From contig NC_081373.1 in the NCBI RefSeq assembly GCF_030684315.1, positions 40,525,989 to 40,589,988 on the forward strand: 64,000 nucleotides of DNA, read 5' to 3'. Shown piece by piece: positions 9,230 through 64,000 of this stretch. Positions within the stretch are counted from its first letter, which is position 1. Each line of letters opens with the position of its first letter. The position numbers and the translations under genes were made by a program. A model generated the notes under the pieces. The model saw only the letters and a program-made list of their open reading frames with translations, had not been told where the DNA came from and did no database searches. This DNA is from Stegostoma tigrinum (taxonomy: Eukaryota).

Positions 9230-9411
9230 TTTCGGAGATAGTAGGAACTGCAGATGCTGGATAATCTGAGACAACAAGGTGTAGAGCTGGACGAGCACAG
9301 CAGGCCAAGCAGCATCAGAGGAAGAAGGATCTAGGCCCGAAACATCAGCTTTCCTGCTCCTCTGATGCTGCTTGGCCTGCTGTGCTCGTCCAGCTCTACA
9401 CCTTGTTATCG
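9230..9411. mobile_element. Palindromic PLE-terminal mini-element
   Basis: Perfect 50-bp inverted repeat 9273-9322 / 9358-9407; TSD cagattagaattg at 9217-9229 and 9412-9424. Confidence 0.85.
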
Positions 9412-12840: not shown

Positions 12841-14416
12841 GTTAGAGAGACGAGGGGTGGGGCTAGGGAATGGAGGTGCAATGGTGATAGGTGGGTGCAG
12901 TGGTAGGAATTGGTCAGTGAGGTGGGAGGAGCGGATAGGTGGGAGAGAAGATGGACAAGTTGTGTCAGGTCAGGGAGGAGGGGATGAGAAGGAGGCTTCT
13001 TCATTGGATGAGGCCAGGGTAGGGAGATTATGAGATAGTACGAACTGCAGATGTTGGAGAATCTGAGATAACAAGGTGTCGAGCTGGATGAACACAGGAG
13101 GCCAATCAGCATCAAAGGAGCAGGAAGGCTGATGTTTCGGGTCGAGACCCTTCTTCAGAAATGGGGGAGTGGAAGGGGTTTCTGAAATAAATAGGGGGAG
13201 AAGGGGAGGTGGATAGAAGATGGATAGAGGCGAAGGTAGGTGGAGAGGAGACAGACCGGTCAAAGAGGCAGGGATGGAGCCAGTAAAGGTGAGTGTAGGT
13301 GGGGAGTTAGGGAGGACGGACAGGTCAAGGGGGCGGGATGAAGGGTGGGGGTGGGGATTGAGGTGGGAGGAGGGGATAGGTGAGAGGAAGAACAGGTTAG
13401 GGAGGCGGAGATGAGCTGGGCTGGTTTTGGGAAGCGTTAGGGGGAGGAGAGATTTTGAAGTTTGTGAAGTCCAAATTGATGCCATTGGGCTGCAGGGTTC
13501 CCAAGTGGAATATGAGGTGCTGTTCCTGCAACCTTCGGGTAGCATTGTTGTGGCACGGCAGGAGGCCCAGGATGGACATGTCGTCTGAGGAATGGGAGGG
13601 GGAGTTGAAATGGTTTGCGACTGGGAGGTGCAGTTGTTTAGTGCGAACCGAGCGTGGGTGTTCTGCAAAGCAGTCCCCAAGCCTCCACTTAGTTTCCCCG
13701 ATATAGAAGAGACCACAACGGGAACAGCGGATGCAGTATACCACATTAGCAGATGTGCAGGTGAACATCTGCTTGATGTAGGAAGTCTTCTTGGGGCCTG
13801 AGATGGGGGTGAGGGGGGATGTGTGGGGACAGGTGTATCACTTATTGCGCTTGCAGGGAAAAGTGCTGGGTAAGGTGGGGCTGGAAGGGAGTGTGGACTG
13901 GATAAGGGAGTCACGGAGAGAGTGGTCCCTCCGGAAAGATGTGGGGAGGGAAAAATGTCTTTGGTTGTGGGGTCGAATTGCAGATGGCGGAAGTGTCGGA
14001 GGACGATGTGTTGGATCCGGAGGTTGGTAGGTTGGTACTTGAGGATGAAGGAGATTCTGTTTTGGTTGTTATTGAAACTGGGCAAGTGCGCATGACCAGG
14101 ACATCCATGGCCAATCCCCGCCTCCTTGGCCTGACGCAAGCTGTCCATCTTCTTTTCCACCTATCTGTTCCTCCCACCTTACTGACCACTCCCCACCACT
14201 CCCTACTTGCAATCACCTATCAGCATTCTACCTACCTTTCCCAGCCCCACCCCTCCTCTCTATTTCTGAGGCCCCTTCCCCCTCCCTCATTTCTGAAGAA
14301 GGGTCCCGACCCAAAACGTTATCTTTCCTGCTCCTCTGATGCTGCCTGGCCTGCTGTGCTCCTCCAGCTCCACACAGTGTTATCTCTGACTCCAGTATCG
14401 GCAGTTCTTACTATCT
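12841..14416. mobile_element. Composite/nested Penelope-like insertion: inverted 3' regions of an older subfamily enclosing a minus-strand truncated PLE (about 13031-14075)
   Basis: TSD cagacaaatt at 12831-12840 and 14417-14426; GIY-YIG frame 13397-13768 (VVYCIRCSRCGLFYIGET); 12845-12990 is a diverged inverted copy of ~14120-14260. Confidence 0.75.
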
Positions 14417-14440
14417 CAGACAAATTATAAAATGATCTGC

Positions 14441-14645
14441 CAAAACAGAAGTTGCTGGAAAAGCTCAGCAGGTCTGGCAGCATCTGTGAAGAAAAATCAG
14501 AGTTAACATTTTGGGTCCAGTGATTATTCCTTTGAACTGAGGAAGTTCCGAGGAAGGATCACCAGACCCGAAACGCTAACTCACATTTTTCTTCACAGAT
14601 GCTGCCAGACCTGCTGAGCTTTTCCAGCAACTTCTGTTTTTTGTT
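14441..14645. mobile_element. Palindromic mini-element of a second PLE terminal-repeat family
   Basis: Perfect 55-bp inverted repeat 14442-14496 / 14586-14640 enclosing two decayed, oppositely oriented hammerhead-like motifs. Confidence 0.8.
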
Positions 14646-14737
14646 CCTAATTAGCCTCAGTTCTTTCGGTTGTTAAACGACCCAGCCTGCTCACAATTAT
14701 TATTCAGCTTGAGCCACCGTAAAACATATTTAAATCA

Positions 14738-16112: not shown

Positions 16113-17160
16113 AGAGATAATGGGAACTGCAGATGTTGGAGAATCCGAGATAACAAAGTGTGGAGCTGGATGAACTCAGCAGGCCAAGCAGCATCTTAGG
16201 AGCACAAAAGCTGACATTTCGGGCTTAGACCCTTCATCAGAAAAGGCGGATGGGGAGAGGATTCTGAAATAAATAGGGAGAGAGGGGGAGGCGGACTGAA
16301 GACAGATAGAGGAGAAGACAGGTGGAGAGGAGAGTATAGGTGGAGAGGTAGGGAGGAGATAGGTCAGTCCGGGGAGGGCAGACAGGTCAAGGAGACAGGG
16401 TGAGGTTAGTAGGTAGGAAATGGAGGCGCGGCTTGACGTGGGAGGAGGGGATAGGTGAGAGGATGAACAGGTTAGGCAGGCGGGGACGAGCTGGGCTGGT
16501 TTGGGGATGCAGTGGGGGAAGGGGAGATTTTGAAGCTGGTGAAATCCACATTGATACCATTAGGCTGCAGGGTTCCCAAGCAGAATATGAGTTGCTGTTC
16601 CTGCAACCTATGGGTGGCATCAATGTGGCACTGCAGGAGGCCCAGGATGGACATGTCATCTAAGGAATGGGAGGGGGAGTTAAAATGGTTCATGACTGGG
16701 AGGTGCAGTTGTTTATTGAGAACCAAGTGTAGGTGTTCTGCAAAGCGGTCCCCAAGCCTCCGCTTGGTTTCCCCAGTGTAGAGGAAGCCACCATGGATAC
16801 AGCGGATGCAGTATACCACATTGGTGGATATGCAGGTGAACATCTGCTTGATGTGGAAAGTCATCTTGGAGCCTGGGTAGGGGTGAGGGAGGAATTGTGG
16901 GGGCAAGAGTAGCACTTCCTGTGGTTGCAGGGGTAAGTGCCGGGTGTGGTGGGGTTGGAGGGGAGTGTGGAGCGGACAAGGGAGTCATGGAGAGAGTGGT
17001 CTCTCCAGAAGGCAGATTAGGGTGGGAATGGAAAAATGTCTTTAGTGGTGGCATCGGATTGTAGATGGCGGAAGTGTCGGAGGATGATGTGTTGTATCCG
17101 GAGGTTGGTGGGGTGGTAAGTGAGGACGAGGGGGATTCTCTTTGGGCGGTTATTGCGGGC
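16113..17160 (-). mobile_element. Penelope-like element, 5'-truncated (endonuclease + tailed terminal repeat)
   Basis: NVVYCIRCIHGGFLYTGETKRRLGDRFAEH frame; terminal repeat with hammerhead-like motif at ~16211-16241. Confidence 0.88.
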
Positions 17161-21863: not shown

Positions 21864-23640
21864 TCACCTGTTGCTGAAAATTTGCAGGAGCTCAAGCCTG
21901 AGGGATATTGTTAGCCTGGAAATACGCTGTGAGAAAGATTTGTACCTTTTAATATTAAGGACGCCCATCAATGTGTTATTGAGCTCCAGCCACTTCCCTC
22001 TTGCTCCCAGAACAAATCCAAAATATTTAGGCTCGAGACTTCCCATCAATTTTTGTAATTGCAGATTGAGATGTGATACTTTTGACTTTTTTTCCTCCCA
22101 CACCATCTCAAGCACCTTGTTATCACCTTCGTTATGAATGGTAACATGTGCCACTGCTATCTTGCTTTCTTTCTTGAAAATGATATCAGGCTTCCAAACA
22201 GAATGATCCAAAACCACCAATCTTGGTTGTTGGTAAGCTGTCCAGACCTAGTGACATACAGGTGTTATTGGTCTGATATCTTATTGTGGCATTTAATTCT
22301 TGCATCCTTGACAAATGGGCACTCTCTCCCCACGCTGCATATTGATCGGCTAGTTTTACTTCGCTTCACGCTTGGTCTCCCCATATGGGCATGAATTCCT
22401 CGATGCTGTCTGTAAGACCTCTTCCTTCTTTGCTGCACTGTTGCGTGCTTGGCAGGAAATCATTTATTTCCTTGAGGATTTTGATCTCTCTCAATCCTTT
22501 AATCTTATCGGCATTATTTTCGCCCCGGAACTGGAAGGAGGCTTCTGATGACAACATCATTGGACATGTCCAATGCTACACATTTCCTACTTACACTTTA
22601 AGTTGGACAAACCCACCATTCCTGTTGCTGCAGTACAGGATGTTGTCAGTAGTATGGGGCAGGAGGTGTAGGAATTCCTTCATGGAGTTGCAGGTGACTT
22701 GGTCCAACTTAACCCATTTCTGAAGAAGGGTCCCAACCTGAAACACCAACTTTCCTGCTCCTCTGATGCTGCATGGCCTGCTCTGCTCCTGCATCTCCAC
22801 ACTGTGTTACCTCTGACTCCAGCATCTGCACTTCTTACTATCTCCAGTTTAACAAGCGTGTTTTGTGACACTTTGGAGAGGATCAAGTGAAAGTACAATC
22901 TAGGGATGACTTGGGTTTTGAGTATTTCCACCCTCTGCATGGGACAAACAGCCACTATCTGAAGGCTGTTCAACTATGTTTTCAGCTTCTCCTCCCATTC
23001 ACCTTCTGCACGCCTGCCCATGGGTCTATCTGGGAACCAAGGTAGCTTTCGGTGTCACCAGGATGGATATAGGCAGCAGGTTTGTTCCTCAGCTGTAACC
23101 ATCTCTTTTTCACTCCAGTGTTAACCACATGATTTCAAACTGCCTTTTATCCTTCTTACCAGCGGCAGGATCTTGCTACTCTTTGGGGGGCTTGCCCCTG
23201 GTCATTAGTAGTTCAGTGATACTCTTCATTAGCTCAATCCCCAGAAACCAACTTTCAGGCTCATCCCCAGCATCCAGGGGTCCTTCAGCTTGAGTCAGCT
23301 GGTCATCAACATCCCTATGAGTTGAGATGGAAGTTGGAGGTCTAGGGACTTTTCCAGAATGCGGTGCTGTTTTCTTGGGGTGGCCGACTTCCCCTTGAGG
23401 TTTGGTTTCCGGGGCACAGTCTGATGGAGCATCTTTCGCTGCTTCCATGGCCTCCATCTGGGTGTTCTGCAAAGCCCTGCATTTGCCGGAGATTTGTTTT
23501 GCAGTTTTTGATTTAAGGATGCTTGCTATTTCCATATTAATGTATCTGCATCCAGCAAATCTCATTTCCAGCTTTCTGAGGAGTGCAACCTCTTCCTCAG
23601 GCCATAGGTAGGCTCTCCTCCTCAACTTTCACGTAATTTC
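21864..23640 (-). mobile_element. R2-like non-LTR retrotransposon relic (restriction-like endonuclease class), internally deleted; 3' UTR probably extends below 21864
   Basis: Domain order on the minus strand: Myb (WPEEEVALLRKLEMRFAGCRYINMEIASILKSKTAKQIS), late RT (GDTESYLGSQIDPW), thumb (PMQRVEILKTQVIPRL...KEFLHL...ILY.SNRNGG), CCHC tail (GECPFVKDARIKCHNKI), endonuclease (KPDIIF...VT...K..K...GFVLGARGKW). Confidence 0.85.
22714..22842 (+). mobile_element. Solo PLE terminal-repeat fragment inserted in the R2 relic
   Basis: ctgaagaagggtcccaacctgaaac...tail; imperfect TSD tccaacttaac (22703-22713) / tccagtttaac (22843-22853), duplicating the R2 codons VKL. Confidence 0.8.
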
Positions 23641-26528: not shown

Positions 26529-28546
26529 TCTCATAGGTAATACCCATTCTGGCACTCGAAAGCCCACATTACATGTATGAATCACATTGGGTTCCATTTC
26601 TTTAAAGACCAAATTGTCTTGAAGTCCAACAAAAATAAAATTTGAAGGCAATATGAAACAAGCTGATTGCTCACTATCACAACTTTCACGGAAGTCTTGT
26701 GACTCAGCAGGTAATAAATCTGCTTGTAAACCAGAGTTCAAATTCCACATTAGAACATGTTGGACAGAGAAGGAGCAATCATGACACAGTTTGAACAGGT
26801 TGATATTCAGCCTCTAATATTTCCAATGCTCCTGTTATTCACAAAAGGGAATATGTGTATGCAAGGATAGGAAACCAACAAACATATTTTACATATTGAC
26901 AGTGGAAAAGTGTAACATGAACTTGCTGGATAAACGTTAAAATAAAAAATACTTGGTATGTTTTGAATATATCCATAAATTATTGCATTTATGGCTAGAA
27001 ATTAATAGACAACTTCATAATTGATTTATACAATATTCAGCTGTTTAATATTCTAATATTCCAAGCTTTAATCTGTTTGAATATTGCACATTTTACGTAT
27101 TCAGTGACATTTCACTGAGTCATTCCTAGTCTCTGTCTTTTATTTAGGCAGTTAATAATCAGAAATCATCTTAATTTTTATCATTCGTGAGTGAACTCGA
27201 TTTTAAAATATCCATGTCTGAGTTACTTTATTGTTATTCTAGCGGTGCATACTTTGCTGACCCTGAGCTACATTTAAGATAAAATCCTCACTGCTGGTCT
27301 GACCTCTTTGATTTCTGTTGATACTCAGGGCCTGCGGTCATCGAAGTCTTTAAAATCTTTTTAGTACTTTGAGGGGCGTTTCCGACGTTATCGCTTTTTA
27401 AACACCAAACTAAAATGAATCCTCCTCCACCCATTGTACAACCTGGGCACCTCTGAAATTGATAATGATGCACTTGCACAAGATGGCAAAGAACATGATT
27501 TCAGAGGAATCATAAACATGGGTCTAGTTTATATCAGTATTCTGTGATAGCAAGCATTTCAAGGTGGTATAATGAGTTTTTGCTGTGTTCTAAGCAAAAA
27601 AAAGGGAAATGGGGATCTGATTAAAATGGAAACCTAGTTAATGGTTGTAATATGCTCATGGGCATCCAAACCAGCAAGGCAGACTGTAACAATCATTATG
27701 TGTCAGCAAAAAGATGGATTAGTTCTCAAATAAATGTTATTTTTATTTACTAGCTGATAAATTCTGTCCTTTCATGCTCAACATTTCTATCCGATAAGTT
27801 AGAGTAGAAACCAGGATTAGTTGTTTGTGATGCCACTGTGATCAATTAGTCGTTTTTTTCTGGGCTCTCCCTTTGATTGTTCAATTTAAATCAACAAATG
27901 TAGACTATTAATGTAGCAGGGTCACAAACATTCAACATCCTAGCTAATAAAATTAATTAAATTCATTTTAACAGATAATAATTTACTTTTTATGGATTGC
28001 ACCTAGTATAAGACTGAAAGGTGAAGTAGAGAAGTACATACCATGTCATTATTCAAGGTCTACAAGTCCCAAAGCAATCAAGGACTTAAAACATGTTAGT
28101 ACTTCATTCCTTGGCCATCTGTTGTGTCATCTTATAGATATTTTCTCCTTTGTTGCCTTTGCAAAATAAAAGTGATCCAAAAATAGGATGTCAAGATGAG
28201 CTGACTGGGCAATCTGTATACCTAGCAACTGTCCCAATTTTTGCAACAATCTCCAAATTTATTGAACCACCTCCATAAGTCTTTTGTACTTCGAAATAAA
28301 GTCTTATTTGTCAATTTCTGTAATGTCTGCATGGAAAAAGTCTGGCTATTCATGAAGATCTAAGTTAAGGAAACTCTCAGGGACCATTTAAGTGCCCCAG
28401 AGATTCCCAGTTTGCAGTGTAGCATGATCTGTACGTCAGTGACGTTTATCATACACTTTAAAACAACTTGTGTGTCTGGATCAACTGAACGAAAATAAAG
28501 TGGAGGAAAAAGCGAAGAAATAAGAAAGCAAAGAGGCAGAGAAAAG

Positions 28547-28772
28547 GGATATTGGGAACTGCAGATGCTGGAGAATCCAAGATAACAAAGTGTGAAGCTG
28601 GATGAACACAGCAGGCCAAGGAGCATCTCAGGAGCACAAAAGCTGATGTTTCGGGCCCAGACCCTTCATCAGAGCCTCTCTGATGAAGGGTCTGGGCCCA
28701 AAACGTCAGCTTTTGTGCTCCTGAGATGCTCCTTGGCCTGCTGTGTTCATCCAGCTACACACTTTGTTTTCT
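28547..28772. mobile_element. Palindromic PLE-terminal mini-element centred on two opposed hammerhead motifs
   Basis: About 95-bp inverted arms meeting at cttcatcagag-cct-ctctgatgaag; TSD aggcagagaaaag at 28534-28546 and 28773-28785. Confidence 0.9.
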
Positions 28773-31700
28773 AGGCAGAGAAAAGATATTTGTCAAAACA
28801 ATATGGTAAAGAAAAACATAAACAGAATCAAATGTAAAGTCAATCATGACATTTTTGAAGGGAGACTGAATAGTTGGCAAACAGAAAGAAATCTGTGTAA
28901 AGAAATAAGATGGACGACAAAGGTAAACAAAGAGGAAACAAAAGGAAGAATTGAGAGTGAGATTTTAAGCCTGCAAACAGCTGGTAAAATTGCAAGGGTG
29001 ATGGGGGGACAGATCAATGTGTGAATACAGAATTGAATAAGAAAACATAGGCGAGGAAGTTAAAGCCTATGAAAGAATATATAAATATAATGTATAAAGG
29101 AAATTATAAGATTTTTCCCAACTCCCACCTGTCTGAATTCACCACATTCTGCACATTCACCTGCTGAGAACGTCAGAAGGTGAACTAGTCCGAGTTTCAG
29201 TTTGTTACTCTGTATCTAAGCTTTTGGATGTAATTGTACATTGAAACATTTTGACTTTTATGGGGTTTGATATAATACTACCTGCCTGGCATAAAATTGG
29301 TGGTAAGCTGTTAAAGATCTTATATTCCTACAGAAAGTCTAATCTTCACAAGCCATTTGCACAGTTAACCTTCAGGCTTTTGCATTCAGATGAAACACCC
29401 ACCTAATGCAAACGAAGTCATCTCATAAATCTTTGCAAATTATAATCCCAATATTTATATGGCTCCCCAATACAATTTTAACTGGGGTCTAAGTTACGCT
29501 GGAATAGAAGTGGGCCATTCAGTCCCTCAAGCCTGTTCCACCATTCAATGAGATCACGGCTGACCTGTGGCCTAACTCCTCTGGTCCATATCCCTTCATA
29601 CATTTGCTTAACAAAACTTTAAATCTGAGGTAGATTAATTTAACAGCAGGTCCTGCATCCACTGCTGTTTGTGGAAGAGAGTTCTAAACACCTCCTGCCC
29701 TTTGTGTCTAGCAAAACTACTTGATAGCCTATGCGCCATGTCTAAAATTTGTGTGGTCAGGCAGAGTGCGAGTGGTCTTCTGGGCCAGATGAGGAAGTTT
29801 GTGATTTCCTTGCCTATGTACTCTCCTCCCTTACTACGCCTGAACCCTCTGAACCCTTGCCCTATCAATTACTTGGAAGATGGGCAACAACGCTTTGCTT
29901 ACTATAGAAACACATCAAGTGGACATCCCAGTGGCTACTAAATGAGATCTTCTCAACCTGTCAGAACTAAAGGCCCTTAAACTGGCAATTAATGGCCTCA
30001 ACTCACCAACTGCCTGATGACATGCCATCCTGGTGAATGAGAAAGTTAGCCAGCTTCCCAGACCAACCCTCCTGTGGAGATAGGGGTGGCCTCTAATCTG
30101 GGAGCAGTTGGAGCCTTGGATGGAGTGGTGGCAGCAGTGGTTAAGGAGGTGGCCTCTGAAAGCAACCCTTATGTTCTTGCCTCTAATATACTCTCTCCAA
30201 AAACTTGACCCTGCAGAAGCCTATAAAAATGACTTCCCTCTTGTCACCAGATCCTTTAAGAAGTAGGCCTTAACACCCAGGACCTGTAGGCCTTTGATGT
30301 ACTACCAGCTTCTGATAACCCAGCAAGCCAGTCTTAAAACCTGCAATAGGTAGAGAACCGTGCCTATGCTCTGCCAACAGCTCTGGATGTGCTGAATGGC
30401 ATGTGGCACATGGAGTTTTCTTGACATTGGCATATATCATATTGGCATATAAATCATCACCCAACAGACCAGCCTCTGCACTTAAAATAGTGGGAAAATC
30501 AACGTCATTGTCTCTGTGAGCAAGCGCTCATTGTGTACTTGATGTCTGCCCACAATGGTCTATATGGAGTTTATGATGTTGTGCATACAGGGCAGCCAAG
30601 CAATGTTTGGGATCATGTCTGCCAACAATCCTCTTTTCTGGATGAAAATTGACAAATAGGTATTTTCCTGAATCAACCTGTTCATAGATGTTATTATATA
30701 CCTCTGGAGCAGTTAGGACCTGAATCCAAGACACTTGGTCTACAGGTAGGCACAATACGACTACAACACTTAAGGTCTAAGGGCTTATTTGGTTAACAGT
30801 GGTGGAGAACAAACACTATTAACTCTAAATGGGAAGTGTCACTTGTCTTACAAGATGCAATCTATTACTTGGTGGTAATAAATACAAATTACATTGGCTA
30901 GTTAGACAGCAATGTTATCCATCACGATCTTGAGCTAGACTTCTATTTTCCTTACCCAAAACTGTTATCATCAGACTGAGTGGAGCTTAATGCAGTCTCC
31001 AACATTCACCTTTTCATACTTGTTAACTTATACAATATGTAATTCCCAATATGTAAAATTATTGTCACATTCCTATAACTTGGGATGGCCAAATAAATTA
31101 GCAAAGGGAATTCCGTCAAAAGATAATGAATACCTTCTAATGTCAGAGGTGCAGGAAAACACTAGAGTGTCATCTTTGATTTTTGTGTTCAAGCCCAGGA
31201 CAGAGTCTTGAACATACACAAATGTGTGGCAGTGAAACATTTCAAATTATTAACAGGTTTCTCAACTTAGGGGTCCTTTCCTCAGTTGAGGGTCATCCAC
31301 AACAAGGGAACAAAGTTTCTGGGGCTGGTCATTTAGGACAATGATGAAAAGAAATTTCTTCACTCAGAGGGGCGTGAGCCTTGCACAACTCCAGCATTGA
31401 GGATACACCATTATAGAACATAGAACAGTACAGCAACAGAACAAACCCTTTGGCCCACTATGTCTGCACTCACAATGGTGCCATTTGAAACTAAGCCTAT
31501 CTGCCTGTGCCTGGTCCTTATTCCCATTTTCCCTGCCTGTTCATGTGTCTGTCTAAATGCCTCTTAAGCATAGCCATCATATCTGCTTCTACCAACTCGT
31601 CTGGCTATTTAGGGTTTAGATGGACAGATTGTTTTGTCAGGATTTGATTGGGAATCAAGGGATTTTGGGAATGGGGGTGGGAGCAAAGTGAAGTTGATTC

Positions 31701-32157
31701 TGAGGTTTGTCATGATCACTTTGAGAGGTAGGGCAGACCTGATAGGCATATGGCCTTCTCCAACTCCTGTTTCTTATGTTCCTATATTTGGCAATTGATC
31801 TATGTCTGGCAGTGCAGCTCAGGTACTCAATCAATCAATGTGGCTGGCTGCATTACAATTATTTACATCAAATTATTTGATGTCGCTGTCTGCCTTATGT
31901 AGATTTTTACCGTTGTTTCAATTCATGCCCAGCTGTTAAAAATTGCCAATTTTACTGGGATTGCTCGTTCTGTAAATCTGACTGGCAGTCTGAAAATGTA
32001 ATTTACTCTGGTGTTTGAACCAGACGAGCTGGAAGGAGGGAAGCACCAATTGAGAAAAGATACATTTCATGAGCCATTAATGTGTTTATTGACTGTGATG
32101 CGAGAGTGCTTGGGATCTACTGGTTAATAACAAGTTCCAAAGGAAGAGAGGTATCTA

Positions 32158-32613
<456 letters not shown>

Positions 32614-34478: not shown

Positions 34479-34499
34479 AAAAATTAGAATCTGTGTTCA

Positions 34500-34592
34500 A
34501 GATAACAAAGTGTGAAGCTGGATGAACACAGCAGGCCAAGCAGCATCTCAGGAGCTCAAAAGCTGACGTTTCGGGCCTAGACCCTTCATCAG
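34500..34592 (-). mobile_element. 93-bp solo PLE terminal insertion ending at the hammerhead core
   Basis: TSD agaatctgtgttca at 34486-34499 and 34593-34606. Confidence 0.88.
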
Positions 34593-34594
34593 AG
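34563..34594 (-). ncRNA. Minimal hammerhead ribozyme motif (intact core)
   Basis: Identical CUGAUGAAGGGUCUAGGCCCGAAACGUC on the minus strand. Confidence 0.78.
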
Positions 34595-36539
34595 AATCTG
34601 TGTTCAGTTGTGATTAATGCATTTCTAAGATAGATTTGAGCTTCTTTGCTACTTTCTGATTATTTCCATCCTAAACACTCACTATTTAATATGAGCATCT
34701 TCTTGGTTTCACTTATTTGGACAGATGAAGAATTGGAAGAGGAGGAACAGCTGCTTTAGAACTGGGGCTTGAAGCAAGTGGGCCTCTTAAAAGGCTGCGG
34801 CTAAGGGGAGCTGGTCACAGCTCATCTTACTTTCTACCCACATTGTCTATAGGCTAAGAGGTATGTTCCTGGATATTTCTGAGACGTAGTGCTCAAGGAT
34901 GCTGCAATTTTGCAGGGAGGCATTGCCAATCTTTGCAATCTGTCATAACAGGACTTGTTACCAAATATAATATTATCATATGTGCTTTGCCCAAAGGGAA
35001 GTCTTTGACTCAATGTAGTCTTTCCATAGATCTCCATGCTATACCTTGAAAATAGCTTCCTTCAATGTTCAAGCCAGCCAGCATTAATATTCTCCTCCTT
35101 CATCATCTTTTTCATTGAAATCTTTCCACCATAACGTCTCTTACAGGTCTGTTTCCTTCAAAATGTGCCCTGCCTAGTCTCCCTCCTTCTCCTAATTGCG
35201 TTCATTTCAACATTTGTTACTTTTGTGGAAGCAGATCCTTTCCAATCTCTTCCAATCACACATTTCAAAGCTATTTAATTACATGTTTTCCTCCTTCTGC
35301 AAGCTCTAGTCTTAGATCCATCGAAAAATAACACTCCGACTCAGGGGGTCTACATGTAGCTTTTTCAAATTGTCTATTCAACTTTCTGATTAGCAACTGC
35401 CTCTTACTAAATATCATTTTATCCATTGTTATCTTTGATCTTACTTGTTTATTGCATCTTCCATCTGCAGAGACTATGCTTCAAAAATACTTCAATTCTT
35501 GCACCTGTCCCAGTTCTCTTCCTCCCATGAATATATGAATATTTCTTGTTGATTTAACACTTACATTATTTTGGTTTTGCTAAGGCTCATTTTCATTCCA
35601 AAGGTCTTGCCTGCTGTTACTCGTCTATCCTTTCCCTGTGCTTGCTTCAAGCACTTTGTCATTAGCAAATCTAATTGAAGTTATCATTTGCTCCCCTTCC
35701 CCAATCTTAAAACTAGTTTTCAAATGCTTCTTTGATCTGTGCTTCTGCAGAGACATTCAAGATGACTGGTGACAAACAACACCTATCAAACACACTTGCA
35801 ATTAGAACACGGTTCCGACTCCCCATTGCCTACACTCACTGTTGCTGTTTGTCCCATGCATGGATTTAGTGACTCATCTCTCTCTCCGTATTGTTCCAAA
35901 GTATTTCTGCTAAGACAATGGCTGTAAATTCACCACTGTCTTTAAGCTTTTTATAATGGGTTCTTGTCAGGCTGTTATAATGGGACATCACCTGTTCATT
36001 TTTATTTATTCAGTGGATGAGGAGGCTCACTGATCAGGCCAGGATTTTATTATCCACCCTTAGGTGAGAAAGTGATAATGAGCTGCTTTGTTGAAACATT
36101 GTAGTCCTGTTATGGAGGGAGTTTCAGGAATTTGACCCAGCAGCATTGAAGGACTGGCAATGTATTTCAAAGTCAGGATGGTTTGTGGCTTGGAATCATC
36201 ATCAAGGCACCAGAGGAGGTCCAGCTCAGCTGTGCAGGCGACATTTCCACACCATCAGTGTCTGGCTGGTGCCTGACCATTGATAAAGTGGATATTGTCA
36301 TGTTCACCAATTTCACAGGCAACAAAATTCAGCCATTGAGTAGTGTGGCTCTCATTGGCTGGGCACTGAAATCATTAAAATGAGCAGAAAACTACGCAAA
36401 ATTAGTTTGTTTCCTTGGTCCAAACATCATTTTAGGATGAACATCTCATTGTGATCATGGCACCTATTTTCATGAGATAATGAATTTAGCATTCGAATCT
36501 GTCATTAAATCATAAACCTATGGAGCATATTTAGGGCTG

Positions 36540-40485: not shown

Positions 40486-40504
40486 CCAACAAGTTTCAAC
40501 ATAG

Positions 40505-40724
40505 ATAACAAAGTGTGAAGCTGGATGAACACAACTGGCCAAGCGCCATCTCAGGAGCACAAAAGCTGACGTTTCGGGCCTAGATCATTCATCTGATGAA
40601 GGGTCTAGGCCCGAAACGACAGCTTTTGTGCTCCTGAGATGGTGCTTGGCCAGTTGTGTTCATCCAGCTTCACACTTTGTTATCTTGGATTCTCCAGCAT
40701 CTGCAGTTCCCATTATCTCTGATC
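40505..40724. mobile_element. Palindromic PLE-terminal mini-element
   Basis: About 90-bp inverted arms meeting at ttcatctgatgaa; TSD acaagtttcaacatag at 40489-40504 and 40725-40740. Confidence 0.9.
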
Positions 40725-41088: not shown

Positions 41089-42291
41089 TATAAAATGTGA
41101 GGCTGGATGAACACAGCAGGCCCAGCAGCATCTCAGGAGCACAAAAGCTGACGTTTCGGGCCTAGACCCTTCATCAGAGAGGGGGATGGGGTGAGGGTTC
41201 TGGAATAAATAGGGAGAGAGGGGGAGGCGGACCGAAGATGGAGAGAAAAGATGATAGGTGGAGAGGAGAGTATAGGTGGGGAGGTAGGGAGGGGATAGGT
41301 CAGTCCAGGGAAGACAGACAGGTCAAGGAGGTGGGATGAGATTAGTAGGTAGGAGATGGACGTGCGGCTTGGGGTGGGAGGAAGGGATGGGTGAGAGGAA
41401 GAACAGGTTAGGGAGGCAGAGACAGGTTGGACTGGTTTTGGGTTGCAGTGGGTGGAGGGGAAGAGCTGGGCTGGTTGTGTGGTGCAGTGGGGGGAGGGGA
41501 CGAGCTGGGCTGGTTTTGGGATGCGGTGGGGGAAGGGGAGATTTTGAAGCTGGTGAAGTCCACATTGATACCATTGGGCTACAGAGTTCCCAAGCGGAAT
41601 ATGAGTTGCTGTTCCTGCAACCTTCGGGTGGCATCATTGTGACAGTGCAGGAGGCCCATGATGGACATGTCATCTAAAGAATGGGAGGGGGAGTGGAAAT
41701 GGTTTGCGACTGGGAGGTGCAGTTGTTTATTGCGAACCGAGCGGAGGTGTTCTGCAAAGCGGTTCCCAAGCCTCCATTTGGTTTCCCCAATGTAGAGGAA
41801 GCCACACCGGGTACAATGGATGCAGTATACCACATTGCCAGATGTGCAGGTGAACCTCTGCTTGATATGGAAAGTCATGTTGGGGCCTGGGATAGGGGTG
41901 AGGGAGGAGGTGTGGGGGCAAGTGTAGCATTTCCTGCGGTTGCAGGGGACGGTGCCGGGTGTGGTGGGGTTGGAGGGCAGTGTTCGCTCCTACCTACTAA
42001 CCTCATCCCACCTCCTTGACCTGTCCGTCTTCCCTGGACTGACCTATCCTCTCCCTACCTCCCCACCTATACTCTCCTCTCCACCTATCTTCTTTTCTCT
42101 CCATCTTCGGTCCGCCTCCCCCTCTCTCCCTATTTATTCCAGAACCCTCACCCCATTCCCCTCTCTGATGAAGGGTCTAGGCCCGAAACATCAGCTTTGG
42201 TGCTCCTGAGATGCTGCTGGGCCTGCTGTGTTCATCCAGCCTCACATTTTATTATCTTGGATTCTCCAGCATCTGCAGTTCCCATTATCAC
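41089..42291 (-). mobile_element. 5'-truncated Penelope-like element with an inverted terminal repeat at its 5' side
   Basis: GIY-YIG frame 41579-41878; inversion junction ~41985; TSD agttcctaaagtg at 41076-41088 and 42292-42304. Confidence 0.92.
41148..41179 (-). ncRNA. Minimal hammerhead ribozyme motif (intact core)
   Basis: Identical CUGAUGAAGGGUCUAGGCCCGAAACGUC on the minus strand. Confidence 0.78.
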
Positions 42292-49332: not shown

Positions 49333-49526
49333 GAGATAGTGGGAACTGCAGATGCTGGAGAATCTGAGATAATAAAGTGTGGAGCTGGATGAACACAGCA
49401 GGCCAAGCAGCATCTCAGGAGCACAAGAGCTGACGTTTCGGGCCTAGACCCTTGCCAAAACATCAGCTTTGTGCCCCTAAGATGCTGCTTGGCCTGCTGT
49501 ATTTATCCAGCTCCACACTTTACTAT
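49333..49526. mobile_element. Palindromic PLE-terminal mini-element (older, hammerhead cores deleted at the centre)
   Basis: Tailed left arm and tail-less inverted right arm; no convincing TSD. Confidence 0.8.
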
Positions 49527-61412: not shown

Positions 61413-61414
61413 CT

Positions 61415-61610
61415 TGCTGGGAAAGCTCAGGAATCTGGCTGCATTTGTGGAGAGAAAACATTGAGACCTTTTTCTGAAAAAGGGTCACTGGACTCAAAAC
61501 TCTAACTCTGTTTTTTCTCTCCACAGATGCTGCCAGACCTGTTGAGCTTTTCCAGCAATTTCTTTTTATGATTCAGATTTCTAGCATCCTTGCTCTTTGT
61601 TTTATTTTAA
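61415..61610. mobile_element. Decayed palindromic mini-element of the second PLE terminal family
   Basis: ttgctgggaaagctcag..tctggc.gcatttgtggagagaaaa followed by the inverted ttttctctccacagatgctgccagacc..tgagcttttccagcaa. Confidence 0.7.
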
Positions 61611-61721
61611 AGAAGAGAAAGATCTTAACCCTTGAAAAAAAAGACAGTATCGTATTTAAATTAATAAAATGTGAGGCTGGATGAACACAGCAGGCCAAGC
61701 AGCATCTCAGGAGCACAAAAG

Positions 61722-61753
61722 CTGACGTTTCGGGCCTAGACCCTTCATCAGAG
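61722..61753 (-). ncRNA. Minimal type I hammerhead ribozyme motif in PLE terminal repeat
   Basis: Minus strand CU-CUGAUGA-A-GGGUCUAGGCCC-GAAAC-GUC-AG: core boxes, stem II, palindromic ACGU in place of stem III; minimal hammerheads are an established feature of PLE pLTRs. Confidence 0.8.
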
Positions 61754-61975
61754 AGGGGGATGGGGGGAGGGAACGGGAATAAATAGGGAGAGAGGGGGAG
61801 GCGGACCGAAGATGGAGAGTGAAGAAGATAGGTGGAGAGGGTGTAGGTGGGGAGGTAGGGAGGGGATAGGTCAGTCCAGGGAAGACGGACAGGTCAAGGA
61901 GGTGGGATGAGGTTAGTAGGTAGCTGGGGGTGTGGCTTGGGGTGGGAGGAAGGGATGGGTGAGAGGAAGAACCGG

Positions 61976-63910
61976 TTAGGGAGGCAGAGACAGGTTGGAC
62001 TGGTTTTGGGATGCAGTGGGTGGGGGGGAAGAGCTGGGCTGGTTGTGTGGTGCAGTGGGGGGAGGGGATGAACTGGGCTGGTTTAGGGATGCAGTAGGGG
62101 AAGGGGAGATTTTGAAACTGGTGAAGTCCACATTGATACCATATGGCTGCAGGGTTCCCAGGCGGAATATGAGTTGCTGTTCCTGCAACCTTCGGGTGGC
62201 ATCATTGTGGCAGTGCAGGAGGCCCATGATGGACATGTCATCAAGAGAATGGGTGGGGGAGTGGAAATGGTTTGCGACTGGGAGGTGCAGTTGTTTGTTG
62301 CGAACTGAGCGGAGGTGTTCTGCAAAGCGGTCCCCAAGCCTCCGCTTGGTTTCCCCAATGTAGAGGAAGCCGCACCGGGTACAGTGGATGCAGTATACCA
62401 CATTGGCAGATGTGCAGGTGAACCTCTGCTTAATGTGGAATGTCATCTTGGGGCCTGGGATGGGGGTGAGGGAGGAGGTGTGGGGACAAGTGTAGCATTT
62501 CCTGCGGTTGCAGGGGAAGGTGCCGGGTGTGGTGGGGTTGGAGGGCAGTGTGGAGCGAACAAGGGAGTCACGGAGAGAGTGGTCTCTCCGGAAAGCAGAC
62601 AGGGGAGGGGATGGAAAAATGTCTTGGGTGGTGGGGTCGGATTGTAAATGGCGGAAGTGTCGGAGGATAATGCGTTGTATCCGGAGGTTGGTAGGGTGGT
62701 GTGTGAGAACGAGGGGGGTCCTCTTGGGGCGGTTGTGGCGGGGGCGGGGTGTGAGGGATGTGTCGCGGGAAATGCGGGAGACGCGGTCAAGGGCGTTCTC
62801 GATCACCGTGGGGGGAAAGTTGCGGTCCCTCAAGAACTTGGACATCTGGGATGTGCGGGAGTGGAATGTCTTATCGTGGGAGCAGATGCGGCGGAGGCGG
62901 AGGAATTGGGAATAGGGGATGGAATTTTTGCAGGAGGGTGGGTGGGAGGAGGTGTATTCTAGGTAGCTGTGGGAGTCGGTGGGCTTGAAATGGACATCAG
63001 TTACAAGCTGGTTGCCTGAGATGGAGACTGAGAGGTCCAGGAAGGTGAGGGATGTGCTGGAGATGGCCCAGGTGAACTGAAGGTTGGGGTGGAAGGTGTT
63101 GGTGAAGTGGATGAACTGTTCGAGCTCCTCTGGGGAGCAAGAGGCGGCGCCGATACAGTCATCAATGTACCGGAGGAAGAGGTGGGGTTTGGGGCCTGTG
63201 TAGGTGCGGAAGAGGGACTGTTCCACGTAACCTACAAAGAGGCAGGCATAGCTGGGGCCCATGCGGGTGCCCATGGCCACCCTCTTAGTCTGTAGGAAGT
63301 GGGAGGAGTCAAAAGAGAAGTTGTTGAGTGTGAGGACGAGTTCAGCTAGGCGGATGAGAGTGTCGGTGGAGGGGGCCTGGTCGGGCCTGCTGGACAGGAA
63401 GAAGCGGAGGGCCTTGAGGCCATCTCCATGCGGAATGCAGGTGTACAGGGACTGGACGTCCATGGTGAATATGAGGTGTTGGGGGCCAGGGAATTGGAAG
63501 TCCTGGAGGAGGTGGAGGGCGTGGGTGGTGTCACGGACATAGGTGGGGAGTTCCTGGACCAAAGGGGAGAAAATGGAGTCCAGATAGGTGGAGATGAGTT
63601 CGGTGGGGCAGGAGCAGGCTGAGACGATGGGTCGACCAGGGCAGGCAGGTTTGTGGATTTTGGGAAGGAGATAGAAACGGGCCGTGCGGGGTTGGGGAAC
63701 AATGAGGTTGGAGGCTGTGGGTGGGAGGTCCCCTGAGGTGATGAGGTCATGAATGGTGTTGGAGATGATGGTTTGGTGCTCGGGTGTGGGGTCATGATCG
63801 AGGAGGCGGTAGGAGGTGGTGTCGGAGAGTTGGCGTCTGGCCTCGGCGATGTAGAGGTCAGTGCGCCATACTACCACTGCGCCACCCTTGTCTGCGGGTT
63901 TGATGGTGAT
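61976..63910 (-). CDS. Penelope-like element RT + GIY-YIG endonuclease ORF, 5'-truncated (no native start), Neptune-like Cys-rich linker
   Basis: Frame stays open upstream of the called GTG through ITIKPADKGGAVVVW; motifs FYLLPKIHK, GRPIVS, TMDVQSLYT, AMGTRMGPSYA, FLRYIDD, FLDL; linker CNRRKCYTC; endonuclease VVYCIHCTRCGFLYIGET...RFAEH...HF...E...NV. Confidence 0.93.
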   Translation of the reverse strand: MTIKPADKGGAVVVWRTDLYIAEARRQLSDTTSYRLLDHDPTPEHQTIISNTIHDLITSGDLPPTASNLIVPQPRTARFYLLPKIHKPACPGRPIVSACSCPTELISTYLDSIFSPLVQELPTYVRDTTHALHLLQDFQFPGPQHLIFTMDVQSLYTCIPHGDGLKALRFFLSSRPDQAPSTDTLIRLAELVLTLNNFSFDSSHFLQTKRVAMGTRMGPSYACLFVGYVEQSLFRTYTGPKPHLFLRYIDDCIGAASCSPEELEQFIHFTNTFHPNLQFTWAISSTSLTFLDLSVSISGNQLVTDVHFKPTDSHSYLEYTSSHPPSCKNSIPYSQFLRLRRICSHDKTFHSRTSQMSKFLRDRNFPPTVIENALDRVSRISRDTSLTPRPRHNRPKRTPLVLTHHPTNLRIQRIILRHFRHLQSDPTTQDIFPSPPLSAFRRDHSLRDSLVRSTLPSNPTTPGTFPCNRRKCYTCPHTSSLTPIPGPKMTFHIKQRFTCTSANVVYCIHCTRCGFLYIGETKRRLGDRFAEHLRSVRNKQLHLPVANHFHSPTHSLDDMSIMGLLHCHNDATRRLQEQQLIFRLGTLQPYGINVDFTSFKISPSPTASLNQPSSSPPPTAPHNQPSSSPPPTASQNQSNLSLPP

Positions 63911-64000
63911 TTGTTTTTAAAAGAAATGGACTCTTGCCAAATTGAAAAAGTCCGCAACTGAAAACAGAATAGTCCAGTTGGCTATTTTTAGAAATTATCA

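Follow-up and report, generated by a model that had tools for sequence, protein, structure and literature searches.

The focal insertion

Near the middle of the window, by which we mean the whole 64,000-nucleotide stretch of Stegostoma tigrinum DNA analysed here, a 226-bp insert (28547-28772) is flanked by exact 13-bp direct repeats, taken as a target-site duplication (TSD) and matched as well by 8 of 3000 random site pairs. The insert is made of two head-to-head 3' ends of a Penelope-like element (PLE), each arm measuring 95 nt and the two differing by 4 mismatches (Table 1); folded as DNA, the arms reach -120.5 kcal/mol (z -27.7). The first-pass annotation had recognised the insert, its exact duplication and the two opposed PLE ends, all of which our analysis bears out. 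It had also taken the unit to consist of the two opposed ends alone, meeting at the CUGAUGA core of a hammerhead motif, and here it has to be corrected: the unit is asymmetric, with a 33-nt tail on one side only, and the real junction lies 2 and 5 nt upstream of the core. The bounds of the tail are supported by genome-wide contigs, in which loose ends peak at 28548 and 28579-28581. Two samples from the same species each have the left junction of the insertion inside a single contig that shows 0 differences, and the left end is therefore not an assembly artefact. A relative (organism A) possesses the left flank at ~5% divergence, with no contig spanning the insertion point, and a 24-nt pattern search of metagenome contigs gave no match. 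The focal palindrome belongs to a familiar type of mobile element, a Penelope-like retrotransposon of carpet sharks, and represents a stump-sized version of its ordinary insertions, the shortest form that they take.

Table 1. Features of the focal palindrome and of related element copies, with positions in the window
Feature	Position	Strand	Remarks
Opposed pair, older subfamily	9230-9411	.	13-bp TSD; ~35 nt less in the tailed arm; microhomology of 2 nt; one private allele common to both arms
Opposed pair, second terminal-repeat family	14442-14680	.	degenerate tail on right arm, by eye; TSD not found
Left TSD copy, 13 bp	28534-28546	+	identical to 28773-28785
PLE tail, 33 nt, this arm alone	28547-28579	-	spans gap between two 3' end classes
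Left arm, tailed, 5'-truncated PLE 3' end	28580-28674	-	
Minimal type I hammerhead motif, left arm	28645-28672	-	broken by CpG change at 28647
Centre, 3 nt	28675-28677	+	equals element body just upstream of right arm; no microhomology
Right arm, tail-less, 5'-truncated PLE 3' end	28678-28772	+	
Minimal hammerhead motif, right arm	28680-28707	+	G12 lost by CpG change at 28700
Right TSD copy, 13 bp	28773-28785	+	
Solo tail-less 3' end	34498-34595	-	14-bp TSD; intact hammerhead motif
Opposed pair	40503-40724	.	16-bp TSD; three private alleles common to both arms, confined to 13 bp; none of the four CpG positions lost in either arm
Long opposed unit, ~1.2 kb	41090-42291	.	894-bp tail-less arm (with ORF end) and ~300-bp tailed arm; 13-bp TSD
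Opposed pair	49333-49526	.	no TSD or private shared allele; arms unequally diverged
Opposed pair, second terminal-repeat family	61414-61605	.	degenerate tail on right arm, by eye; TSD not found
Longest family copy	61662-63917	-	5'-truncated 646-aa frame; DKG, YIDD RT, CX4CxxC linker, GIY-YIG; same terminal repeat

The parent element and its family

The focal arms match the 3' end of the longest family copy in the window (61662-63917) at 93%. This copy, which is tail-less and has no clear TSD, retains a frame uninterrupted from the reverse transcriptase (RT) to the GIY-YIG domain, with the motifs DKG, YIDD and VYC..CxxC..YIG and the linker CNRRKCYTC at residue 469. In Pfam searches on the family, RVT_1 matched below its cut-off and GIY-YIG above cut-off on copy 16475-16984; homologous proteins carry both domains. 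The closest named relatives of the protein come from zebra shark (94% identity) and whale shark (88%). The family thus combines the traits of EN+ PLEs, namely an RT with C-terminal GIY-YIG and CCHH-type cysteines, an optional 30-40-bp tail at one end (33 nt here, on one arm, with two end classes genome-wide), an inverted 5'-truncated head-to-head copy inside a TSD and, judged by sequence pattern, a terminal repeat bearing a putative minimal hammerhead. Each of the features listed for the Neptune and Nematis clades in the available part of PMC8557442 (DKG, RT, a CX2-5CxxC linker and, at the C terminus, a GIY-YIG with two internal cysteines) is present, and on these domain criteria the family appears to be a Neptune- or Nematis-type PLE, the linker being common to both clades. 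The reading frame of the tail has no match among 120 homologous proteins.

The arm aligned with 96,578 and 102,507 contig pieces in the window's species as against 11,672 and 7,408 in a relative, tallies that are not equivalent to copy numbers; at 99% identity or more, the corresponding figures are 5,870 and 6,503 against 76 and 16. The excess in the window's species suggests, and points to, a recent lineage-specific expansion of the family. The family is young, with the 646-aa frame at 61662-63917 still uninterrupted. Two further open frames of ~150 aa in the window (32155-32613 and 23176-23628, minus strand) have no Pfam match.

Hammerhead motifs

A strict minimal-hammerhead pattern recovers 3 intact motifs in the window and 0 in 30 shuffles, and the same pattern finds 23 motifs, with covarying helix I, in 18 of the 86 loci of related invertebrate-type PLEs described below. 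Common traits with the minimal PLE hammerheads presented in the available part of PMC4209133 are the CUGANGA core, an unpaired base before helix II, GAAA, the palindromic ACGU and a covarying helix I; the shark motifs, which are predicted ribozymes, differ from them in a helix I of only 2 bp and in the mutation of both focal copies. In the left focal arm, a C>T change at 28647 disrupts the ACGU helix III, and in the right arm a G>A change at 28700 abolishes G12, each change being private to its arm. The identification of minimal hammerhead motifs made in the first-pass annotation stands, with the qualification that both focal copies are now broken. Rfam assigned no hammerhead family and gave no match at the gathering score, its E-value scans returning only generic hairpin matches, among them microRNA matches below cut-off; folded single-stranded, the hammerhead segments did no better than shuffles. 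Dual hammerhead motifs on opposite strands, ~100-700 bp apart, are described from Schistosoma in PMC4209133, as far as available. At 28640-28677 (minus strand), the 3-nt centre lengthens helix I of the left arm from 2 to 5 possible pairs, probably by chance (about 1 in 16).

Other inverted pairs in the window and in related elements

The same architecture had been reported at 9230, 14441, 40505, 49333 and 61415. All five are indeed opposed pairs, but only those at 9230 (13 bp) and 40503 (16 bp) have a TSD, a scan of the other three having detected none; a long, ORF-bearing unit at 41090-42291 had been missed. Units range from ~150 bp to 1.2 kb, with TSDs of 13-16 bp and 6 short units in 64 kb, and the centre junctions of all 7 window pairs differ. 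At the junction of the 41090 unit (41976-41995), a 7-nt inverted piece from beyond the end of the long arm lies between microhomologies of 3 and 4 nt. Its tailed arm gains 10 nt that lie just past the end of the long arm, ~800 nt in, which indicates that both arms turn at one point. The 49333 pair may represent two events. Just ~20 bp before the start of the 14441 pair, two tailed copies of older subfamilies (13031-14419) face outward with ~210 bp of other sequence between them and no TSD found; they are probably separate insertions.

Alignment-based scanning for related PLEs of invertebrate type gave 86 loci (80 retained out of 484, plus 6 from a second scan), in 31 of which there is an inverted repeat of at least 40 nt. 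Eleven of these 31 were chosen by hand as repeats apparently involving the element, and 5 of the 11 have a 12-15-bp TSD; the TSD scan was without success in the remaining 6 pairs, 3 of which run off the contig. All 5 TSD-flanked units (L020, L039, L066, L067 and L083) carry an extra segment of 42-57 nt on the inverted arm only. In a comparison with second copies that covers L020, L066, L067 and the TSD-less L044, this segment is conserved among the four. The loci come from several samples, 5 of the 6 in the L020 family having a common contig-name prefix. Six contigs that encode PLEs (L081-L086) belong to two bacterial MAGs of a prokaryote genome collection, where they are probably contamination from animal hosts.

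Tails, arm ends and a stop hot spot

Exactly one arm is tailed in each of the 7 window pairs, 4 of 4 among those flanked by a TSD, the tails of the second family being identified by eye; solo copies in the window comprise 4 tailed and 4 tail-less ones. For the TSD-flanked units of window and invertebrate loci together, the count is 9 of 9 with exactly one tail. Where the arms of a TSD-flanked unit are unequal by more than 30 nt, as is the case in 7 units (9230, 41090, L020, L039, L066, L067 and L083), the tail always sits on the shorter arm; the tailed arm is the longer one at 40503 (by ~4 nt), 49333 and 61415. These are small numbers, with arm ends read by hand. Palindromes and solo insertions with a TSD (34498 and 26449) have their tail-less end at one place, to within ~3 nt, and, as solo copy 34498 combines such an end with a TSD, it can serve as an insertion end by itself. 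The two end classes, 31-33 nt apart, each coincide with a copy of a repeated TATCTC-like motif (e.g., 16116-16160 and 40676-40724), and the tail end has TCTCTGAT in common with the hammerhead start.

The 5' ends are also concentrated. The hammerhead is reached by 14 copies, and 8 of them have their 5' end no more than 10 nt from the start of its core (e.g., 28674, 34595, 40592 and 9321), a stop rate ~30 times that further in (p=2e-6, with arms collapsed and ends read by hand). Candidates for the cause are the 5' end of the RNA itself, a tract immediately upstream that is 88% pyrimidine and the TCTCTGAT word. We rejected ribozyme cleavage, the ends lying at the core start and the cleavage site 28 nt further on, as well as a splice acceptor of the kind that the available part of PMC4209133 describes in D. 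virilis, as no AG precedes the core.

Genome-wide contigs contain recurrent joints (35 and 18-22 contigs per run; window positions 28548 and 28581-28583) in which a tail-less end sits directly on an opposite-strand tail end and target DNA is absent from the contact. They could be tandem or circular inverted units, insertions into older ends, or template jumps; among the joints listed (15 of 38), none corresponds to a palindrome centre.

Alleles shared by the two arms

We aligned 18 terminal copies, one of which, a diverged copy (54524), was then set aside. The focal arms have two changes in common, at 28621/28731 and 28658/28694, that are absent from the other 15 family copies compared, as the first-pass annotation had maintained. 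Private shared alleles number 1, 2, 3, 1 and 0 in five window pairs, 7 in all; among the 131 non-arm pairs, such alleles are absent from 122, whereas 8 pairs have a single one and one pair has three (permutation p=0.00046). Sharing of alleles between arms is thus real, and these alleles are rare and may belong to minor donors: at 28621, at least 95-97% of depth-weighted contig letters are C in four runs, the G allele reaching at most about 3-5%, and no donor copy with the shared alleles was found. The proposed test of arm-to-arm distance did not set the arms apart from near-consensus copies: measured by simple distance, one focal arm is as far from the other (4/90) as the left arm from solo copy 34498 (also 4/90), and the excess resides in shared derived alleles only. 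In the 41090 unit, 3 of the 4 alleles that the arms share in the terminal 90 nt are also present in copy 61662, and the arms of the older, short-spacer pair 49333 show 11 differences in 74 positions and no private shared allele. CpG decay accounts for 0 of 7 shared and 6 of 36 own changes, small counts that do not differ significantly (Fisher p=0.57).

Two of the invertebrate families had enough copies for the same test. The TSD-flanked units L020, L066 and L067, with spacers of 986-1194 nt, have 6, 3 and 5 private shared alleles, respectively, and TSD-less L044 has 0; non-arm pairs have 0-2, with one pair at 3. The presence of arm-shared alleles in ORF-bearing units with spacers of ~1 kb implies that such sharing is not special to mini-palindromes.

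Origin of the inverted units

We lean slightly towards a reading in which a single RNA is the template for priming from both target strands, at the two start sites known for PLEs. Priming on both strands from one RNA or donor had been the first of three options raised for this locus, and it is now the best supported of them, through the one-tail rule, the position of the tail on the shorter arm and the shared alleles. Each start site is present once per RNA, and this would account jointly for the one-tail rule and the shared alleles. According to the available part of PMC11167929, a PLE protein, predicted to act as a dimer, nicks and extends both target strands in vitro, and RT starts at two adjacent RNA sites that bound the tail. 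The strands did not differ there in their start site, which speaks against our reading, and the steps after priming are left unvalidated. That element, PAc (Poseidon of the anole), resembles the shark family in these two respects, nicking and extension of both strands and paired start sites around the tail, and comes from a different clade.

The reaction would begin with staggered nicks 13-16 bp apart. One 3'-OH would prime at the tail-less site and usually extend further, and the other would prime 33 nt downstream, at the tail site of the same RNA, copying the tail as well. The second cDNA would have to displace the first, a displacement that we assume, and would usually stop earlier or jump. 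The two cDNA 3' ends would then join head-to-head through 0-3 nt of microhomology, followed by fill-in. The arms would share variants already carried by the donor copy, minimal units would arise when both cDNAs halt at the hot spot beside the hammerhead core, and the 41090 junction could reflect a jump of the second RT to the first free RNA past the first cDNA. The palindromic products are likely dead ends.

This scheme has a counterpart in the twin priming of L1 elements, where two target-primed cDNAs on one RNA are joined by microhomology and leave an inversion inside a TSD. The second L1 primer lands internally and the pieces have no overlap, whereas the two PLE cDNAs both start at the 3' end and the same sequence is copied twice. 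That inverted PLE insertions arise by such an overlapping twin priming, on one RNA with two homologous sites 33 nt apart and a 3' end copied twice with strand displacement, is a proposal to which we give an even chance.

Fold-back is the next reading, possible but rather unlikely in our judgement. One cDNA, or an antisense RNA as in PMC3846280, would fold on a micro-palindrome and copy itself, the endonuclease would resolve the product at the tail boundary, as suggested in PMC8557442 (both papers as far as available), and later central deletions would make the arms unequal. Arms formed in this way would share donor variants together with first-strand errors, and each unit would again have one tail and arm-shared alleles. 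The turning of the arms at nearly one point at 28547, 40503 and 41090 agrees with it, as does the centre of 41090, where a 3-bp stem and a 7-nt loop occur naturally and read in the right sense along the tailed strand; completed by a later deletion at the 4-nt microhomology, fold-back fits that junction equally well. It is the tail that tells against it: all 7 clearly unequal units with a TSD have it on their shorter arm, and a simple fold-back of the tailed strand would require a later, one-sided deletion in every one of them. Moreover, the tail-less end also terminates the solo TSD-flanked insertions 34498 and 26449, and the focal centre has no microhomology.

Alternatively, template switching or gene conversion might have made the two inverted arms alike once the unit was in place, as described for yeast inverted repeats (PMC13100816, as far as available). 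The focal unit can form a near-perfect 95-bp hairpin, its 3-nt centre could be an inverted spacer, and at 40503 the three changes that both arms have are confined to 13 bp. We nevertheless find this option, also put forward earlier, improbable: sharing extends across spacers of 631-1194 nt, the older short-spacer pair 49333 is unconverted, and the one-tail rule is left unexplained. The TSDs of three young units, furthermore, have 0 mismatches in 42 bp, against a rough expectation of ~2.8 under conversion and 0.9 under an origin at insertion, a rough likelihood ratio of ~6 against homogenisation.

Double priming on two RNAs from one dominant donor locus, with the shared alleles being those of a minor subfamily, would agree with the predicted protein dimer of PMC11167929 (as far as available), with the occurrence of 3 of the 4 alleles of the 41090 arms in copy 61662, with a G allele at 28621 that might make up 4-5% of the family's depth and with the 49333 pair, which looks like the product of two templates. 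Two RNAs would, however, permit units with two tails or none, of which there are 0 among the 9 TSD-flanked units, and give no reason for the arms of 41090 to turn within 10 nt of each other ~800 nt in; we hold this to be very improbable.

Least credible, and most improbable in our estimation, is a non-autonomous hairpin retroelement that propagates itself, the palindrome being transcribed and inserted anew in one piece, since, despite the abundance of short units (6 in 64 kb), direct repeats with periods of ~95 and ~125 bp elsewhere in the genome and recurrent opposed tail-less/tail joints such as tandem or circular palindromes would give, all 7 junctions in the window differ, neither a centre junction nor arm variants recur among the 7 pairs, the shared alleles are private to their loci, sizes from ~150 bp to 1.2 kb and allele sharing reach into ORF-bearing units, the focal ribozymes are broken, and an RNA copy would be one long duplex hiding both start sites and both ribozyme folds. 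There is a very small chance that some palindromic units are re-mobilised in tandem or circular forms, which the recurrent joints would allow.

Relation to known elements

Miniature inverted-repeat transposable elements (MITEs; class II) have inverted repeats at their extreme ends, ends that are alike, a uniform size, a recurrent interior and a fixed TSD length. The earlier label of MITE-like is not tenable, with a 33-nt one-sided tail in place of symmetric ends and 7 different junctions, sizes of ~150-1200 bp and TSDs of 13-16 bp in place of uniformity. Nor is the system undescribed, as had been claimed, and the focal palindrome fails as a new class of mobile element, its architecture being known. 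Inverted pLTRs, tails, TSDs and junction palindromes are reported in the available part of PMC3846280, where self-priming is proposed; PMC8557442, as far as available, notes that an adjacent inverted truncated copy is frequent in PLEs and that their cycle, including tandem and inverted insertions, is undefined. The units of EN+ PLEs in these two papers resemble ours in the inverted 5'-truncated head-to-head copy, the 30-40-bp tail usually at one end, the TSD and the junction palindromes, and differ from the focal unit in that both focal copies are cut to ~95 nt, the hammerhead-to-end segment alone. In their available parts we found neither arm-shared alleles nor the rule of the tail on the shorter arm. 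Likewise, neither arm-shared alleles nor double priming on one RNA in PLEs came up in our literature search, although PLE papers of 2004-2006 may hold such a model.

The value of the locus lies in mechanism, the rules observed here providing a testable clue to PLE insertion. One tail per unit, the tail on the shorter arm and donor alleles shared by the arms separate priming on one RNA from fold-back, two RNAs and conversion, and any carpet shark assembly, or the in vitro system already established, would allow all three rules to be checked. If overlapping twin priming is true, the thousands of shark mini-palindromes would constitute a genome-scale record of the reaction. In annotation, such units will be mislabelled as MITEs or, given the microRNA matches below cut-off, as microRNA hairpins.

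Non-LTR retrozymes (bioRxiv 10.64898/2026.07.22.740005, as far as available) are, like the focal units, non-coding, hammerhead-bearing derivatives of PLE pLTRs. They are direct tandems with intact ribozymes, whereas the focal units are inverted and their motifs broken, and the window contains no direct tandem with intact type I hammerheads. Elsewhere in the genome, the hammerhead-to-end segment forms direct repeats with periods of ~95 and ~125 bp (28672-28674 joined to 28579-28580 or 28548), an arrangement that is retrozyme-like and that insertion into older ends or template jumps would also explain.
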